Source of the DNA: an uncultured Chloroflexia bacterium
GTDB taxonomy: Bacteria; Chloroflexota; Dehalococcoidia; DSTF01; JACRBR01
Reading direction: 5' to 3'
Length of the DNA: 64,000 nt
Assembly: GCA_963701135.1 (NCBI GenBank)
Contig: OY969567.1
Location: forward strand, 2,836,554 to 2,900,553
Below the pieces are notes generated by a model. The model saw only the letters and a list, made by a program, of their open reading frames with translations, searched no databases and was not told where the DNA came from. The stretch's first letter is position 1, and each line of letters begins with the position of its first letter. Both the position numbers and the translations under genes were made by a program. Positions 35,841-40,525 of the stretch are shown here, piece by piece.

Positions 35841-35867
35841 CTTAGCACTCTCCAGACAAGAGTGCTA
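35841..35867. promoter_or_regulatory. CIRCE operator (HrcA binding site)
   Basis: TTAGCACTC-tccagacaa-GAGTGCTAA is a perfect match to the CIRCE consensus TTAGCACTC-N9-GAGTGCTAA, 46 nt upstream of the groEL ATG. Confidence 0.95.
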
Positions 35868-37509
35868 ACGCGAGTGTACGCCACTGGTGCGGGTGGATCA
35901 AGTGCGCGCTGGTCGCTGGTTGGTAGTTCGCAGTTGGTAGCGGGGGACGACCTAGCCCTCCGAGGCTGGCGGGCGTCTCTGCCGCTTCAGGGTCGAACCC
36001 TTCTACGCCGTGCATTTCAATCTCGAACGATAGCCGCAGTAGCCGATCCTTGAGCACCTTAATCGTGTCCGGCTCGATGTTCGATGCCTTGTGTCGTGCT
36101 TGCCACTCAGCTATCGCGTCATAAGTACAGTGACGGAGATAATTCAGGAACCCTTCAGCTCCGGAAATTTGCTCGATGTGCGGGTGGTGGAGATTAACCA
36201 CGACCACAACTCGTGCGGTGGACGTCGCGTCAACAACGACGTATCGATTGTTCGGAGACAACTCATCGACCAGGTATCCGCGAACAGCGAATCCTCCAAG
36301 GTTCGCCTGATATGATGGCTCCCTCCCCGCCACTACTCCGAGCAGCGGTTTCAGTACCTCTGTAACCACATTCGGCGGCGGGACGGTCTCAACGTTCAGC
36401 ATGTCGGCCAGTTCTGCGGACGACAGCTCCTGCTGAAGCTCCTCGACGGCCGTCTGTATCTCAAGGTCGCTCGGCCCCCGCTCATCCTCGTCGCCCTTCC
36501 GGCGTGTCTTAGCCACGGCGACGTAATCCGCGCAGATCTTCTTTAGCTCCTTCTGAACGTCATCCTCCTGGCGTCCGAGCCAAAGGATGTCATCCTTTGT
36601 GTGGCTCACGTCGAAACCGTCCAAGTGGATCTCGCCGATCACCCGCTGGTTGACAAGATCGTTCGAGCCCTGGAACTGGCCGAAGATCTCTTCCGGCCGC
36701 CATGAGTCGGGCCAACCTTTTACGACGCGGTCGGCGTGCAGGATCGAAAAGCCGGCCTTAGACCGGCTGCCTTTGTCGAGCACACCGACCCACCCGTGGA
36801 CATCCTCTCCATCGACCTGGAACCTAAAGTCTTTGCGATAGGCCGATCCGTCCTTCGCTTTCAAGAACTGTGCATCAGAATCGTCCCATTCCAGCGGGTC
36901 CCCTTGCCACTCCAACGTCACTCGATGTGCACGCAGATCTTGCCGGTACATGGACCGCATGAACTGCTTGATCTTTCCCAGCGTACGCCCCTGAAACTGC
37001 CGATTGAGATCATGGATCTCAATGATGGTATAGTGCTCCGACGGATCCCGATCCGGCGTTACTCTGTAGGGCAGATCGTTCGTTCCGTCGGCGACCGTGT
37101 CAACGTCGATCTCCACTACGCGCTCGATCGTCTCGCCAAGCTTCTTGGTCCTCACGCTCCAACGATTTCCGAGCCAGCACGCCGCAGTCTTCAGGCCCAT
37201 TCCGAACTTCGAGCGTCCTGTAGTGTCAGCGGGCCGCTCCCCGATGTGCAGACTCGCAGTCAGATCTTCCTCGGACATGCCCATCGCGTTGTCTACCACG
37301 CGGATGAACGGATGCTCGCCCCGTTCGTACACCACGGATATCTCGAGTCCGCGATCCTCTTTGGCAAAAGCGGCGTCTAGCTCCGTCGAATGAACCCGAT
37401 AAGACTCAGTCGAGTTATCGATGAATTCCGCGAGTGCGTGCCACGCCGTGTACGACAGCCGCTTGTACGACAGGATCGTTTCGAGCCCCAGTCGAAGTTG
37501 AATGCCCAT
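35842..37509 (-). CDS. GHKL-superfamily (HATPase_c_3 / MORC-like) ATPase, fourth gene of the island operon
   Basis: 555 aa. Bergerat motifs are [12 protein letters not shown] (N box), [13 protein letters not shown] (DxGxG) and [17 protein letters not shown] (G2 box). The ATG lies 2 nt after the stop of the upstream gene. The last ~45 codons run through host-type repeats and the groEL promoter and end inside CIRCE. Confidence 0.75.
35872..35900 (-). promoter_or_regulatory. groEL sigma70-type promoter
   Basis: On the minus strand: TTGATC (35900-35895), a 17-nt spacer, TACACT (35877-35872), then 4 nt and the CIRCE element. Confidence 0.6.
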
Positions 37510-37511
37510 AG

Positions 37512-38303: not shown

Positions 38304-39510
38304 TCGCTTCCAGCCTCATGCGTTGCCACGTGACGGATTCGGCTCCGGCAAGATCTGATGCTTCCTTGACGAGCCGCTCTTCCTCTACGTCGGTGGCATA
38401 GACCGTGTACACCACCGCCAGATCCTTCCCGGGCGCGGGTCGAAGCACGCGCCCAAGCCTCTGCACCCGCTGCCGAACGCTCGCGGTCGAGCTCGCGATA
38501 ACTGCGATGGTCGTCTCGGGCACGTTTGTGCCTTCGTCTAGCGCTCTGCAGCTCACCATCACGTCGAACAGGCCTCGTCGAAACAGCCGCAAGTTGTCGC
38601 GACGCGTTACAGACCCTATTCGCGAGTGATAGATGGTCGCGTTAATTCCTCTACTCGTGAGCGCCGACTTAATTTCCTCCGCTGCGGAGATACGCTCGTG
38701 AAACACGAGTATACGCGCGCCCCGATGTGCGCTCACGATTCGCAGCGCAGCCGGCACTCGCATCTTTGCGTTGGCCGCGACCGATGCCCGCTGCATCAGC
38801 AGACGCTTCAGGCGATCGTCTACTTCATCCCCGTCCCAGGCATGCTTCATGAGCGGAGCGATCTTTCGAGTGATCTTGTCGTACGCGTCGCGTTCTCGAG
38901 GATCGAGCTCGATACCCACATTCACTAGCTTGAAACGCGAGATCACGCCGTCCTCCAACGCGCGGTTGTAGTCGTACCGTGTGATGATTGGCCCGAGCGC
39001 TGGGGCGAGGAACTCCTCGAATCCCTCGTCATATTGCCGTTCGGGTGTCGCCGAGAGTCCGAGCGTGGCGGTGTATTCCCCCGACAGTGCACGCGCATTC
39101 ACAGGACTCGCCGCTCGGTGACATTCATCTACGATGAGCATCACCGCCTCGCCTCGGGCTAGTCGCGGAGCGACCTCGCGAGCGGTATTTAGCACAAGAA
39201 GATTGATGAGCCGAGGTTCGCGCGCGCGCCCTTCGCCGGAGTAGGTTGCTATGTCTTCATCACGGACCTGGAGGTCCTCGCGAAGCGACACGTACCATTG
39301 ATCGAGAAGCGATAGCGTTGGGACGACAATGACGAAGCGCGCCGCCGGGAACTCCCGTCGGTACCGCAGCATGCACATCTCCGCGAGGATGGTTTTCCCA
39401 GCGCCCGTCACGACGGCGGCGATGCCGCTGTGATTGCTTTCCCACGTGGCCAGCGCTTGCAGCTGCCACTCTCGCGGCTCGGCTGCTAGCGCCCACTCAT
39501 GCGTGGCCAT
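38281..39510 (-). CDS. minimal SF2 (DEAD/DEAH, ResIII-type) helicase, second gene of the island operon
   Basis: 409 aa. Motif I is VVTGAGKT, motif II is LIVDECHRAAS, motif III is LSATPER and motif VI is QRLGRVLRPAPGK. It overlaps the methyltransferase gene by 14 nt. Confidence 0.85.
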   Translation of the reverse strand: MATHEWALAAEPREWQLQALATWESNHSGIAAVVTGAGKTILAEMCMLRYRREFPAARFVIVVPTLSLLDQWYVSLREDLQVRDEDIATYSGEGRAREPRLINLLVLNTAREVAPRLARGEAVMLIVDECHRAASPVNARALSGEYTATLGLSATPERQYDEGFEEFLAPALGPIITRYDYNRALEDGVISRFKLVNVGIELDPRERDAYDKITRKIAPLMKHAWDGDEVDDRLKRLLMQRASVAANAKMRVPAALRIVSAHRGARILVFHERISAAEEIKSALTSRGINATIYHSRIGSVTRRDNLRLFRRGLFDVMVSCRALDEGTNVPETTIAVIASSTASVRQRVQRLGRVLRPAPGKDLAVVYTVYATDVEEERLVKEASDLAGAESVTWQRMRLEANGKANRS

Positions 39511-40525
39511 TCGCGCGCGCTCGACGAAGCCAGACCCTGTCGAATCGCCCCTGGGATCCGTCTATGTAGCCTCTATCCATCTCGACGGATAGCCAGCGCC
39601 GGCTCAACCTTTCGGCTGCTGCCCCAGTTGTGTTGCTGCCCGCGAATGGGTCGCACACCAAATCATCAGCATCGGTTAGGAACTCGATAAAGAACTCTGC
39701 TAACCGGCTCGGCATTCGTGCCGGATGGGTGGGCAGGTCGTGGGATCTGCAATACGACTGATAGTCATCCACCGCCGCCGTGTTCGCGATGGTCAGAACG
39801 TTCGATGGTATCGATCCCCCGTTGTCCGTAAGAAACGAGGTCGTCCCGATGTGGTGCTCGGAGGGGCGCGCGCCCGCGTTGTACTTCTTCGTCTCCAGTA
39901 ATTTCAGCATAGAGGTGCTGTACTTCTTCAACACGCGTCTGTTGTCAGCCTTGGGCCGCGGGGTTGCGGACATCCACCAAACGTGAGTGAACGAATCCGT
40001 CACGCGGATCCGTTCGACGTTCACCCACTGAGCCGGGCTGGGCAGCCTAGCTGGATTGTTGCACACGAACTGTTGACAGAGGTAGAAGCCGCCCTTCTCG
40101 ACGAGGCCAAGCAACGCCTTCAGCGCGAGCGTGGACATTGTTGGACTGCCCGGCACCCAGGCATTCCCCAGTTCCAGGACGAGTGAGCCCGTCGGAGTTA
40201 GTAAGTCCCGGAACGTAGGAGCGAACGACGCGAGCCACTCCACATACTCCTCGCCTTGTTGGTTCCCGTACCGCTTCTTCCTGTTCAGCGGGAACGGCGG
40301 CGAGGTGAAGATTAGCTGGGCCTTGTTCCGGTACTGCGCCCCATCAGGCGATCCGAAGAATGCCTTGCTATCGCCTGCGATCATCTCGCCAGCCGCCGTG
40401 CGATACGCTAGCCGCGGCTTTGGTGCCGGTTGAACCGGCGGCTTTGCCGGGGTCACTGTCTTTCCCAAACTGCACCGTTCATCGTCGATCAGATCTAGCT
40501 CGTTAACGATAATGCCCTCTTGCAT
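39497..40525 (-). CDS. beta-class DNA methyltransferase (N4-cytosine/N6-adenine family, SPPF type), first gene of the island operon
   Basis: 342 aa. Catalytic motif IV (IFTSPPFPL) comes before the AdoMet motif I (HPARMPSRLAEFFIEFLTDADDLVCDPFAGSNTTGAAA), which is the beta-class motif order. Confidence 0.85.
   Translation of the reverse strand: MQEGIIVNELDLIDDERCSLGKTVTPAKPPVQPAPKPRLAYRTAAGEMIAGDSKAFFGSPDGAQYRNKAQLIFTSPPFPLNRKKRYGNQQGEEYVEWLASFAPTFRDLLTPTGSLVLELGNAWVPGSPTMSTLALKALLGLVEKGGFYLCQQFVCNNPARLPSPAQWVNVERIRVTDSFTHVWWMSATPRPKADNRRVLKKYSTSMLKLLETKKYNAGARPSEHHIGTTSFLTDNGGSIPSNVLTIANTAAVDDYQSYCRSHDLPTHPARMPSRLAEFFIEFLTDADDLVCDPFAGSNTTGAAAERLSRRWLSVEMDRGYIDGSQGRFDRVWLRRARANGHA

Follow-up and report, generated by a model that had tools for sequence, protein, structure and literature searches.

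A horizontally acquired four-gene cassette upstream of groEL that probably encodes an NTP-dependent restriction-modification-type defence system

Just upstream of groEL in an uncultured Chloroflexia bacterium lie four genes for a DNA methyltransferase, a helicase, a previously unannotated protein and a GHKL-type ATPase, a set for which no name was found in the profile libraries (Pfam, PADLOC, NCBIfam) or in the literature searched. Do these genes form one system, and what would such a system do? We analysed the surrounding 64,000 nucleotides, referred to here as the window. Our reading is that the genes are probably a self-contained, NTP-dependent restriction-modification-type defence cassette that was acquired horizontally.

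Four intact open reading frames occupy positions 35842-40525 of the minus strand, with overlaps of 14 nt and 23 nt and a gap of 2 nt; these coordinates, strands and spacings had been given in a preliminary description of this DNA and came out exactly the same when recomputed. The sharp drop in composition claimed there was borne out as well. The GC content of the island is 59.7%, compared to 68.5 +/- 3.6% outside it, which makes it the lowest 5.1-kb stretch in the 64-kb window, and GC3 is 69-72% across the four cassette genes versus 85-99% for neighbouring genes. The island is, however, larger than the reading frames by which that description had delimited it. Its low GC and an empty site found in one relative (L078), as the preliminary description had proposed to look for, define an inserted foreign element of 5141 bp (35907-41047) with the whole cassette aboard. 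In L078, the upstream neighbour gene has its stop codon only about 55 nt from the CIRCE side of groEL, and homology between this locus and the window stops at about 35906 and restarts at about 41048.

A pair of 21-nt inverted repeats, at 35907-35927 and 41027-41047, marks the insertion junctions. The groEL-proximal arm, CGCTGGTCGCTGGTTGGTAGT, is complementary to the distal arm at 20 of 21 positions and sits within a read-through tail of the GHKL reading frame, and the distal arm ends 8 nt ahead of the stop codon of the upstream host gene. An exact 17-mer of the repeat occurs at two sites only in the 64 kb, which are the two arms, and the repeat is assigned to the insert because the relatives' loci (L076-L081) lack it. 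No target-site duplication was seen at the element ends, and an ORF scan of the island found no integrase or transposase, in agreement with the earlier account. The cassette was thus acquired horizontally, as a 5.1-kb insertion with an inverted repeat at either end. The site is a hotspot: the cargo found there differs in other relatives and is of defence type in two of three (a Mrr-nuclease-helicase gene and an MNT/HepT pair).

Between the distal repeat and the methyltransferase gene is a non-coding leader of about 500 nt (40526-41026, minus strand) with no credible ORF and no Rfam match. It contains 14-nt tandem units akin to the terminal repeat at 40799-40846, and a second 14-nt tandem set at 41011-41058 overlaps the distal terminal repeat. 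Three exact copies of TTGATTGG are present at 40874-40993 and none elsewhere in the window. A promoter search of the leader returned a sole promoter-like site, at 40538-40509, which scored no better than chance.

To follow the cassette across genomes, 62 loci were recovered via the GHKL gene and 7 were fetched via the nuclease gene. Approximately 45 of the 62 GHKL-recovered loci keep the same four genes in order and strand, and the loci span Chloroflexota, Acidobacteriota, Actinomycetota, Proteobacteria, Planctomycetota, Armatimonadota and others, so the co-occurrence in unrelated genomes that had been put forward as a check was observed. The sequences also co-vary: identities of the nuclease, GHKL and helicase proteins correlate with r of 0.60-0.74, the best partner of the nuclease being the GHKL gene (r 0.74), and correlations with the methyltransferase are lower (r 0.27-0.41). 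The methyltransferase is kept in nearly all loci, with an occasional swap for other N6_N4 methyltransferases, and in some it has been replaced or relocated, as in restriction-modification systems. Not every locus has the helicase: there is a variant of three genes, for methyltransferase, nuclease and GHKL ATPase, sometimes with a PIN_8 protein. Where the helicase and nuclease genes adjoin, they overlap or abut in all nine loci with gene calls, which is consistent with translational coupling. The four proteins co-evolve and form a unit whose conservation extends across phyla.

In each of the 49 testable loci the cassette has a higher AT content than the sequence on either side, with a mean difference of 10.7 points. 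IS elements break the GHKL gene or the helicase/nuclease region in four loci, a sign of a costly restriction side; the methyltransferase was detectable in three of these (split in one) and was not detected in the fourth (L028). Neighbours in other genomes include ThsB-TIR, McrBC with Mrr, GmrSD with integrases, and a C-protein-like HTH gene. Many cassettes, however, stand alone amid housekeeping genes and not in the defence islands in which they had been suggested to be looked for.

All profile matches predicted for the four proteins (PF01555, PF04851 with PF00271, and PF13589) were obtained. The first gene (39497-40525, minus strand) encodes an N4-cytosine DNA methyltransferase of the M.PvuII family (PF01555, 3e-30; PADLOC MTase_II PDLC03323, 3.8e-88), and the PADLOC scores separate Type II from Type III (MTase_II 4e-88 vs MTase_III 5e-11). 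The expected motifs, SPPF and then DPFAGSNTT, are present in the beta-class order. Alignment to the M.PvuII structure 1boo (E 1.8e-76) is full-length and includes the target-recognition region, so the earlier "m4C/m6A-type" label was right as to the N4/N6 beta class and can be narrowed to an m4C enzyme. Homologues are 273-316 aa long, and the true start may therefore lie downstream of 40525. Of 38 palindromes testable in the window outside the island, CAGCTG shows the strongest depletion (7 observed vs 27.7 expected). The depletion is not specific, since it is also present, more mildly (ratio of about 0.65), in hosts in which no PvuII-family methyltransferase was detected.

The second gene (38281-39510, minus strand) encodes a minimal SF2 helicase or translocase of 409 aa with two RecA domains (ResIII, 8e-19; Helicase_C, 1e-15), the motifs GAGKT, DECH, SAT and QRLGRVLR, and no fused nuclease. 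The protein matches PADLOC PbeA at 1.7e-73 over profile positions 251-651 of 672 only; the N-terminal part, which in PbeA is an HKD nuclease domain (PMC10853773), has no counterpart. The match to TIGR04095 (1.6e-52) is under that profile's cutoff. Among solved structures, those of archaeal XPB/Rad25 come closest (E 3e-26), and EcoP15I Res was not found among the sequence matches.

The third gene (37512-38303, minus strand) encodes the previously unannotated protein of 263 aa. It has no match in Pfam, PADLOC or NCBIfam, nor by sequence in the PDB, which includes a structure of R.NgoAVII. Its family comprises 193 clusters at 90% identity and 1124 representatives at 50% identity; among the matches listed, members are stand-alone, almost all of about 260 aa, and any given name is "hypothetical". 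A model with a pLDDT of 96 has a PD-(D/E)xK-fold domain at residues ~1-165 and an all-beta domain at ~170-263. The invariant residues of the family (E21, D58, E73, E75, Q88, W139 and R157) map onto the helix-strand-strand-strand-helix core, with E21 as an additional invariant residue in the first helix, and the four core acidic residues and Q88 are unchanged across all 55 aligned members. The model thus bears out the nuclease core suspected in the preliminary description from a D-x13-ExE pattern, although the true spacing is D58-x14-E73xE75. Foldseek matches to the model (AF1548/1y88 with a probability of 0.99, EndoMS, R2 restriction-like endonuclease domains, MGME1, Ecl18kI, MmcB-like and RecB/Cas4 proteins) are each weak, with every E-value >1e-3, yet all are of one kind. 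The third catalytic position is Glu instead of Lys (ExE), an active site also found in BamHI. The C-terminal beta domain is the fastest-evolving part (29% vs 45% median identity). By fold and motif, the 263-aa protein is a predicted PD-(D/E)xK-fold nuclease.

The fourth gene encodes a GHKL+S5 ATPase that had been called MORC-like, a call supported by its best PDB matches, the ATPase modules of MORC3, MORC2 and MORC4 (E ~1e-16 over ~410 columns), with a MORC2-DNA complex among the structural matches. A weak match to MzaB is confined to the GHKL domain. The ORF as read is 35842-37509 on the minus strand (555 aa), of which about 505 aa (35992-37509; PF13589, 6e-17) are common to all homologues. 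Its boxes are E28xxD31N32, as expected, D73-N-A-M-G77, where "DxGxG" had been stated, and G98-x4-G103xG105; E28, D31, N32, D73, G77, G98, G103, G105, K107 and T108 are invariant ATP-binding residues. The model is confident over residues 1-335, and the C-terminal region at ~340-500 is family-specific. Homologues end 6-16 residues past an EIEMH motif, and none has the window-specific tail of about 50 aa (35842-35991, minus strand), which is predicted to be disordered. This tail crosses the terminal repeat into host DNA, its stop being the TAA of groEL's CIRCE operator (35842-35868), and could be a genuine read-through or an assembly indel.

From these components we infer a defence function and the following mechanism. 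The PvuII-family methyltransferase would put N4-methylcytosine on a short palindromic site of the host DNA, probably CAGCTG or a near variant. The helicase, the 263-aa protein and the GHKL ATPase would form the restriction module, in which the 263-aa protein would supply a Mg-dependent PD-(D/E)xK endonuclease centre (E21/D58/E73/E75) and its variable beta domain would probably recognise the site or its methylation state. The SF2 helicase may serve as an ATP-driven translocase or switch; it would correspond to the helicase half of a Type III-like Res that has been split, with the helicase-then-nuclease gene order retained. Upon ATP binding the MORC-like protein would dimerize, clamp or loop the DNA and license the nuclease, and incoming unmethylated DNA would then be cut. 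In methyl-directed mismatch repair, the GHKL+S5 protein MutL activates the small PD-(D/E)xK nuclease MutH, which reads the methylation state, and recruits UvrD; the proposed licensing would parallel this activation of MutH and loading of UvrD. The core trio would be methyltransferase, nuclease and GHKL ATPase, with the helicase as an accessory that is missing or replaced by PIN_8 in some lineages. In VcSduA/paraMORC3, a GHKL ATPase fused to a PD-(D/E)xK nuclease, both activities are needed for anti-phage defence (PMC12137116).

We consider it unlikely that the methyltransferase and the 263-aa protein are instead an ordinary Mg-dependent Type II pair, with the helicase and GHKL ATPase forming a separate co-travelling module that is unneeded for cleavage and acts, for example, in post-cleavage processing or independent defence. 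Such a pair would account for a bona fide Type II (PvuII) methyltransferase, for a 263-aa protein whose size and layout of nuclease plus variable domain resemble Type II REases, and for the dispensable helicase of the three-gene variant. It sits poorly with the position of the GHKL gene directly downstream of the nuclease in every nuclease-bearing locus, a linkage that only the 7 nuclease-fetched loci test independently because 62 loci came via GHKL. The co-variation of GHKL with the nuclease above all, the overlapping or abutting helicase-nuclease junction, and IS insertions that strike GHKL genes, as expected of a restriction gene, also argue against a mere passenger.

The helicase is closest to PbeA, and PbeABCD reportedly stops viral replication with no cleavage of viral DNA (PMC6459918). 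Modelled on that report and on eukaryotic MORC silencing, the MORC-like ATPase, guided by its partners, might clamp or compact foreign DNA that is unmethylated and keep it from being replicated or transcribed, leaving it uncut; the structural nearness to MORC2/3/4 and the MORC2-DNA match would suit such a role. This we regard as quite improbable. The invariance of the nuclease-core residues in all 55 aligned members argues for catalysis, and Aravind and colleagues contest the no-cleavage reading, since PbeA has an HKD nuclease.

The inactivation of GHKL, helicase or nuclease genes by IS elements, in four loci of which three still have a detectable methyltransferase, indicates toxicity, and a toxin-antitoxin pair is among the hotspot cargo of relatives. 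An abortive-infection or toxin system, in which a latent nuclease would turn on the cell's own DNA upon phage sensing and the methyltransferase would be an antidote or regulator, is nonetheless very unlikely: a standard site-specific m4C methyltransferase that is nearly always retained and sometimes swapped is the signature of self-marking, and no sensor domain was recognised in the cassette. A methyl-directed repair module for genome maintenance, analogous to MutL-MutH-UvrD-Dam, has the parallel of GHKL+S5 ATPase, nicking-type PD-(D/E)xK nuclease, helicase and methylase in its favour, and Iyer et al. permit occasional recruitment of such systems into repair (PMC2292703), but it can be dismissed almost entirely in view of the patchy, phylum-crossing distribution, the foreign composition in 49 of 49 loci, the empty site in a close relative, interchangeable and largely defence-type cargo (2/3 relatives), decay through IS elements and the lack of a MutS-like mismatch sensor.

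A restriction-modification-type cassette thus remains our preferred reading, and it can be placed among known systems. Its likeness to mismatch repair is a functional analogy, with no sequence relationship past the GHKL fold; the cassette lacks MutS, its helicase is SF2 and not SF1, and it is mobile, patchy and foreign in composition. In the ATP-dependent Type II systems CglI/NgoAVII, the nuclease and the helicase-like ATPase must cooperate, with extensive NTP hydrolysis (PMC4267653). In that arrangement (M; R, a PLD+B3 nuclease; N, an SF2 ATPase), as in the cassette, nuclease and helicase-like ATPase are separate proteins, but the cassette nuclease is PD-(D/E)xK rather than PLD, their methylase is C5, and a GHKL ATPase is found only in the cassette. 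VcSduA/paraMORC3 (Shedu type I-D) shares the coupling of GHKL ATPase with PD-(D/E)xK nuclease that we propose by analogy for the cassette, but VcSduA is a single-gene, modification-free fusion to a DUF4263 nuclease, whereas the cassette has two separate proteins, no DUF4263 match in the 263-aa nuclease, a methylase and usually a helicase.

PbeABCD/CxC-ABC-ATPase systems are phosphorothioate- or methylation-linked, some of them with N4-cytosine methylases. They provide the best PADLOC helicase match (PbeA, 1.7e-73) and likewise pair an SF2 helicase with a large DNA-clamping ATPase and a nuclease. Unlike them, the cassette has a helicase without the N-terminal HKD nuclease of PbeA (PMC10853773), no CxC ABC ATPase (PbeC), DndE-like PbeD, small PbeB or dnd genes, a GHKL protein as its clamp and a PD-(D/E)xK nuclease. 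With Type III systems (Mod + Res, e.g. EcoP15I) it shares the order methylase, helicase, nuclease, a ResIII-type SF2 ATPase with a predicted PD-(D/E)xK nuclease and, by analogy, an expected ATP-dependent long-range communication. It differs in having Res split over two genes, a Type II PvuII-family m4C methylase in place of Mod, and a fourth, obligatory MORC-like ATPase.

PADLOC returned components of the locus only (a Type II methyltransferase, a PbeA-like helicase core and a weak MzaB match), and no named system, in line with the preliminary description, which had called the locus a candidate uncharacterised one. Its statement that MORC-type restriction-modification operons had been predicted is borne out by the paper (Iyer, Abhiman and Aravind 2008, Biol Direct 3:8; PMC2292703). 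In the literature searched, no experimental test of this class appeared besides that of paraMORC3; Mza is a further tested member. The four roles of Iyer type 1 (GHKL+S5 ATPase, Rad25-like SFII helicase, RE-fold nuclease, methylase) are all in the cassette, which has a MORC-like GHKL+S5 ATPase, a Rad25/XPB-like helicase and a nuclease of predicted RE (PD-(D/E)xK) fold, and which is laterally mobile and hotspot-integrating. Rad25-like helicases of type 1 are "commonly fused" to RE/HKD nucleases, whereas here the helicase is bare and the nuclease a separate, unannotated 263-aa family; the methylase is PvuII-type m4C, where Iyer et al. 2008 describe "mostly cytosine and rarely adenine" methylases together with Vsr. 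The cassette fits the MORC-associated restriction-modification class, as a split "Mod, Res-helicase, Res-nuclease plus MORC". The earlier statement that it fits no classical type holds as far as named systems go, but the most apt description is a Type III-like Res that is split and joined by MORC, which makes the cassette a variant within a class that had already been predicted and does not place it beyond every known kind.

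The four minus-strand genes of the cassette were found as the preliminary description had them, with overlaps of 14 and 23 nt and a gap of 2 nt: methyltransferase (39497-40525), helicase (38281-39510), a 263-aa protein (37512-38303) and a MORC-like GHKL ATPase (35842-37509). The drop in GC content reported there was borne out by 1-kb windows over 36-41 kb, which had 57-62% GC compared to 68.5 +/- 3.6% elsewhere. No stretch of such length within the window is lower in GC than the 5.1-kb island, and GC3 was 69-72% in the cassette genes versus 85-99% in neighbouring genes. The HMM matches forecast earlier were all obtained (PF01555, PF04851 with PF00271, and PF13589), and the same search gave zero match for the 263-aa protein. 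The motifs quoted for these proteins were present in the translations, except that the nuclease spacing is D58-x14-ExE rather than D-x13-ExE and the second Bergerat box reads DNAMG rather than DxGxG.

The methyltransferase aligned over its full length, target-recognition region included, with M.PvuII (PDB 1boo, E 1.8e-76), an N4-cytosine enzyme that recognises CAGCTG. Among PADLOC models it matched the Type II model MTase_II at 3.8e-88, whereas Type III methyltransferase models matched at the C-terminal motif only (5e-11); a Type III Mod identity was rejected in favour of Type II M.PvuII, the best match. Outside the island, CAGCTG was the most depleted of the 38 testable palindromes in the window (7 observed, 27.7 expected). 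In the pooled host flanks of the other loci it was depleted to a similar, mild degree with (0.63) or without (0.65) a PvuII-family methyltransferase. Because depletion in those hosts is equally mild whatever the methyltransferase class, CAGCTG avoidance was rejected as proof of specificity, and its depletion in the window is suggestive, a hint to the target site. CTCGAG was also strongly depleted in the window outside the island (20 observed, 44.7 expected, z -3.7), which may be the trace of a further R-M specificity, past or present, in the lineage.

The helicase is a bare two-RecA-domain SF2 core of 409 aa. Its best PADLOC match was PbeA (1.7e-73), covering profile positions 251-651 only; the protein begins at helicase motif I and the N-terminal part of PbeA, which is an HKD nuclease domain (PMC10853773), is missing. 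The nearest solved structures were archaeal XPB/Rad25 proteins, and the HMM matches included ERCC3_RAD25_C. Matches to HsdR models were weak (TIGR00348 7e-4, REase_I 2.5e-4), and those to BrxHI/II, DpdE and DpdF in PADLOC were generic helicase-domain matches (1e-9 to 1e-5).

In the case of the 263-aa protein, single-sequence and profile searches of PDB, Pfam, PADLOC and NCBIfam returned nothing usable, and the sole NCBIfam match, an acyl-CoA synthetase (0.0017), was discarded as noise. The family comprises 193 clusters at 90% identity and 1124 representatives at 50% identity. Its listed members are stand-alone proteins, nearly all of ~260 aa, that have no Pfam domain and, if named at all by a source, are called 'hypothetical', and no fusions were present in the 150 best family representatives. 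E21, D58, E73, E75, Q88, W139 and R157 were invariant in an alignment of 55 sequences, and a predicted model (pLDDT 96) has a helix-strand-strand-strand-helix core with these residues distributed over its helix 1, strand 2, strand 3 and helix 2. The preliminary description had seen a hint of a PD-(D/E)xK core in this protein, and such a core was recovered in the model; the Foldseek matches, each weak (best E 6e-3), were all of this one kind (AF1548, EndoMS/NucS, R2 restriction-like endonuclease domains, MGME1, Ecl18kI, MmcB-like and RecB/Cas4-like proteins). We conclude that residues 1-165 form a predicted nuclease domain with a PD-(D/E)xK fold and a D...ExE motif as in BamHI. Residues 170-263 are modelled as an all-beta domain with no match, and this domain is the fastest-evolving part of the entire cassette (29% versus 45% median identity). 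The nuclease was absent from the plasmids and phages of PLSDB and INPHARED. The analysis thereby defines a large unannotated family of putative PD-(D/E)xK nucleases.

By sequence, the ATPase was placed in the generic HATPase_c_3 family (PF13589, 6e-17), with an additional weak match to MzaB and no match in the PDB; fold search alone succeeded. The best matches of its model were the GHKL+S5 modules of MORC3, MORC2 and MORC4 (E ~1e-16 over ~410 columns), in agreement with the MORC-like assignment made earlier. Its ATP-binding (Bergerat) residues are invariant, and catalytic-type residues are conserved in the nuclease and helicase as well. The components are established in identity and fold. No TIR, RecB-like or HxH C-terminal domain was found in the ATPase, and it is therefore unlikely to belong to paraMORC3-5. 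The GHKL gene of an Enterobacteriaceae MAG was absent from complete E. coli genomes.

Loci fetched via homologues of the 263-aa protein all had the arrangement helicase-nuclease-GHKL, with the methyltransferase upstream, downstream or divergent. A GHKL-alignment scan, at one genome per species, gave 62 loci from Chloroflexota (many of them sponge-associated Dehalococcoidia), Acidobacteriota, Actinomycetota, Planctomycetota, Armatimonadota, Gemmatimonadota, Alpha-, Beta-, Gamma- and Deltaproteobacteria, one cyanobacterium, one thaumarchaeon and one Paceibacterota MAG. Every nuclease-bearing locus sampled also carried the GHKL gene, although the 62 loci, being recovered through GHKL, cannot show whether the nuclease occurs without it. 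Co-occurrence in the same order, which had been proposed as a check, was found across many phyla: methyltransferase-helicase-nuclease-GHKL lie on a single strand in ~45 of the 62 loci, and all four genes are full-length in 40. Median identity to the window proteins was 61% for the methyltransferase, 54% for the helicase, 41% for the nuclease and 55% for GHKL. The identities of nuclease, GHKL and helicase co-vary (r 0.60-0.74), those of the methyltransferase less so (r 0.27-0.41), and the methyltransferases fall into two classes, some being outright replacements. These data establish that the genes are co-inherited and co-vary; the weaker co-variation and the replacements of the methyltransferase are as expected if it is exchangeable together with specificity. 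The helicase-nuclease junction was overlapping or abutting in all nine loci with gene calls, and the two were separate ORFs in all sampled loci.

Variants and decayed copies were also observed. Eight loci carry a helicase-less variant, methyltransferase-nuclease-GHKL, and a PIN_8-domain protein follows GHKL in three of these and in L058, a locus in which no methyltransferase was detected. In the cyanobacterial locus (L029:6747-9924), a 52%-identical GHKL is found with a C5 (Dcm) methylase, a 368-aa protein without assignment and an FGE-sulfatase-domain protein. At L052:12708-16471, a GHKL homologue adjoins an integrase, with a PvuII-family methyltransferase and a 777-aa unassigned protein on the opposite strand. 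Such GHKL homologues with other partners are 43-52% identical to that of the window, and the two arrangements suggest further undescribed MORC-type cassettes. IS elements disrupt the GHKL gene in L049, L060 and L065 and the helicase/nuclease region in L028 and L060; a methyltransferase was detectable in three of these four loci (split in L060), and none was detected in L028. Disruption by IS elements that spares the methyltransferase is the usual route by which R-M restriction genes decay. In other genomes the cassette often stands alone amid housekeeping genes, and its neighbours sometimes include ThsB-TIR, McrBC with Mrr, GmrSD with integrases, HicB, conjugation genes or a C-protein-like HTH.

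Metagenomes were scanned with the C-terminal part of the upstream neighbour gene as query, which gave relatives at 80-90% nucleotide identity. The empty site whose existence had been left to comparison with close relatives was found in one of them, L078, where the groEL upstream region lies ~55 nt from the neighbour-gene stop codon and homology to the window ends at ~35906 and returns at ~41048. These breakpoints are the outer edges of a 21-nt terminal inverted repeat (35907-35927 and 41027-41047, 20/21 complementary), which makes the insert an element of 5141 bp that ends in inverted repeats. The exact 17-mer core of the repeat does not recur in the window, and the relatives lack it. The element contains no transposase and no further ORFs, and no target-site duplication was seen at its junctions. 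The cassette is of foreign origin here, and it was AT-richer than its surroundings in all 49 loci with enough flank (mean 10.7 points). A scan of 53 loci for flanking inverted repeats gave a single other candidate, L016; because repeats of this kind are generally missing around the cassettes of other genomes, the carrier in the window is probably lineage-specific. The L016 repeat is 25 nt long (L016:6202-6226 and 12075-12099, 23/25 matching) with arms 0.9 kb upstream of the methyltransferase and 0.6 kb downstream of the GHKL gene, and L016 may be a second carrier bounded by inverted repeats.

The same site is differently occupied in the other relatives. L081 (9631-14747) holds a 923-aa Mrr_cat_2-ResIII-Helicase_C-HA protein, an HA-repeat protein and a 208-aa unassigned protein; L079 (1-2850) holds a remnant of the L081-type gene, an MNT/HepT toxin-antitoxin pair and a duplicated end of the neighbour gene; and L077 (1685-3819) holds two unassigned membrane or secreted proteins. 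The 923-aa protein resembles the nuclease-helicase part of the PADLOC model REase_MTase_IIG, which we take to include Type ISP-like enzymes. Given this differing cargo, the intergenic site next to groEL is a variable hotspot; of the three relatives in which it is occupied, two have defence-type cargo.

The groEL start codon is preceded, 46 nt upstream, by a perfect CIRCE operator (TTAGCACTC-N9-GAGTGCTAA, 35842-35868), whose final TAA doubles as the stop codon for the extended GHKL ORF. The insertion point of the element is only ~38 nt upstream of CIRCE; the insertion probably displaced the native groEL promoter, so groEL may now be transcribed as part of the cassette operon. Scans of the island for promoters, terminators and Rfam families gave nothing above chance. 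At 40799-41058, short local repeats mark the non-coding leader of the element: 14-nt tandem units akin to the terminal repeat (40799-40846 and 41011-41058) and three exact copies of TTGATTGG at 40874, 40884 and 40986, the first two at a distance of 10 nt; one-mismatch copies include 40894, and the sequence occurs nowhere else in the window. These leader repeats could be binding sites for a protein such as a regulator or recombinase. In the window, groEL (33983-35795) shifts frame (2, 1, 2, 0) and the upstream neighbour gene (41056-~43400) shifts once, at ~41522. Each is a single intact ORF in relatives, groEL in L077, L079 and L081 (536-537 aa) and the neighbour gene in L078 (775 aa), and the frame changes reflect either assembly indel errors or decaying copies. 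The four cassette genes are intact.

Elsewhere in the window, 44500-46200 is densely packed with copies of a ~40-nt palindromic unit, CTCCCCTTCCC-TCGCA-GGGAAGGGG-CCGGGGGTTAGGTT, which form two clusters of opposite orientation; in one of them the period is ~69 nt. The array looks like a REP/BIME-type element rather than a CRISPR because its 'spacers' are repeated too; the unit is also present in relatives L079 (~6815-6855) and L081 (~5211-5244). At 1332-3625, within a low-GC stretch (~500-3000, 57-62% GC), a two-gene unit is tandemly duplicated and comprises secreted proteins of ~180/145 aa with identical N-termini, followed by two 225-aa paralogues. A further low-GC patch at 58.0-59.0 kb (58.7% GC; region 57295-59009) encodes a 173-aa membrane protein adjoining a 247-aa SAM-methyltransferase-like ORF with a Cys-rich N-terminus, by eye possibly ArsM-like.

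The reading of the cassette as R-M-type defence was upheld as a reading, and from it we infer the following function and mechanism. The methyltransferase would mark a short site with m4C, and the nuclease would cut unmethylated DNA. The helicase would act as the helicase half of a split Res, in ATP-dependent translocation or switching. The MORC-like dimer would clamp or loop DNA and license the nuclease, as MutL activates MutH and loads UvrD, an analogy also drawn by Iyer et al. 2008 (PMC2292703). In VcSduA, the GHKL ATPase and the PD-(D/E)xK nuclease are both required for defence (PMC12137116). We put forward tentatively that the cassette might house a prokaryotic MORC ATPase that reads DNA methylation, combining a clamp on unmethylated sites with ATP-gated licensing of the nuclease/helicase. 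The dimer would then clamp DNA topologically while the variable beta domain of the nuclease presents unmethylated sites, and in the extreme form foreign DNA would be silenced without cutting.

Other explanations were weighed against the same evidence. A Type II R-M system plus passengers is unlikely. The cassette does have a cognate PvuII-family m4C methyltransferase, and its 263-aa protein is a stand-alone predicted PD-(D/E)xK-fold protein without a sequence match to known REases. Non-degradative exclusion of the MORC type, against which the invariance of the nuclease residues speaks, is distinctly unlikely. That the cassette acts by abortive infection appears improbable, and a role in DNA repair, against which the mobility pattern counts, is hardly credible.

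The cassette is compact (4.5 kb), strongly conserved, widespread (>1000 nuclease clusters at 50% identity) and present in a few cultured bacteria. The cultured carriers include Paraburkholderia sejongensis MMS20-SJTR3, Burkholderia sp. TSV86, Mesorhizobium sp. ORS3359, Qipengyuania thermophila CFH 74456 and Chitinophaga polysaccharea. Cassettes of this kind probably act as barriers to transformation in Chloroflexota, Acidobacteriota and sponge-symbiont lineages, and they are missing from current defence-system censuses. They could reveal how a MORC clamp works together with a helicase and a nuclease on DNA marked by methylation. In the literature searched, the fused GHKL-nuclease VcSduA is the sole tested MORC-type case. 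Mza has reportedly been tested experimentally as well. Bacterial MORC-type GHKL ATPases were predicted in 2008 as R-M parts and as the source of eukaryotic MORC proteins (PMC2292703). A methylation-reading MORC, if true, would offer a tractable model of the ancestral link between MORC and DNA methylation in eukaryotic transposon silencing, and would constitute a new R-M mechanistic class, 'Type III-like split Res plus MORC clamp', on a mobile inverted-repeat carrier.

As a system, the cassette was not recognised by PADLOC, Pfam or NCBIfam, and the four-gene family is neither named nor tested in the open-access full-text literature searched. The misfits with Type I, Type III, BREX and DISARM claimed in the preliminary description held. 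Type I was rejected on the lack of an HsdS-like ORF in the island and the weakness of the HsdR matches, and Type III since the SF2 helicase (409 aa) and the PD-(D/E)xK nuclease (263 aa) are separate ORFs rather than one polypeptide. BREX, DISARM and also Dpd were rejected, as the signature proteins PglZ, BrxC, DrmA, DrmB and DpdA are missing and the matches are to generic helicase domains only. PbeABCD/CxC-ABC was rejected because the HKD nuclease fusion of PbeA is missing and the four proteins include neither a PbeC CxC-type ABC ATPase nor a DndE-like PbeD. Shedu type I-D (paraMORC3/VcSduA) fuses a DUF4263 nuclease to GHKL, whereas the cassette keeps both proteins separate and neither matches DUF4263 at E <= 0.1, and this assignment too was rejected. 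Mza was likewise rejected on tested defining features. Hma and MADS are methylase-helicase-ATPase systems, and no PADLOC family of theirs matched the nuclease or the GHKL protein. In its features the cassette agrees with the MORC/paraMORC R-M class that Iyer et al. 2008 predicted, type 1 with a Rad25-like helicase: its GHKL domain keeps the ATP-binding motifs intact and precedes an S5-type domain, and its gene neighbourhood, with a Rad25-like SFII helicase, an RE-fold nuclease and a methylase, is conserved across unrelated lineages. Unlike that class, its nuclease is a separate unannotated protein and its methylase is of the PvuII-type m4C kind. The cassette bears on the mechanism of MORC ATPases and is a variant of the predicted class rather than something categorically new.
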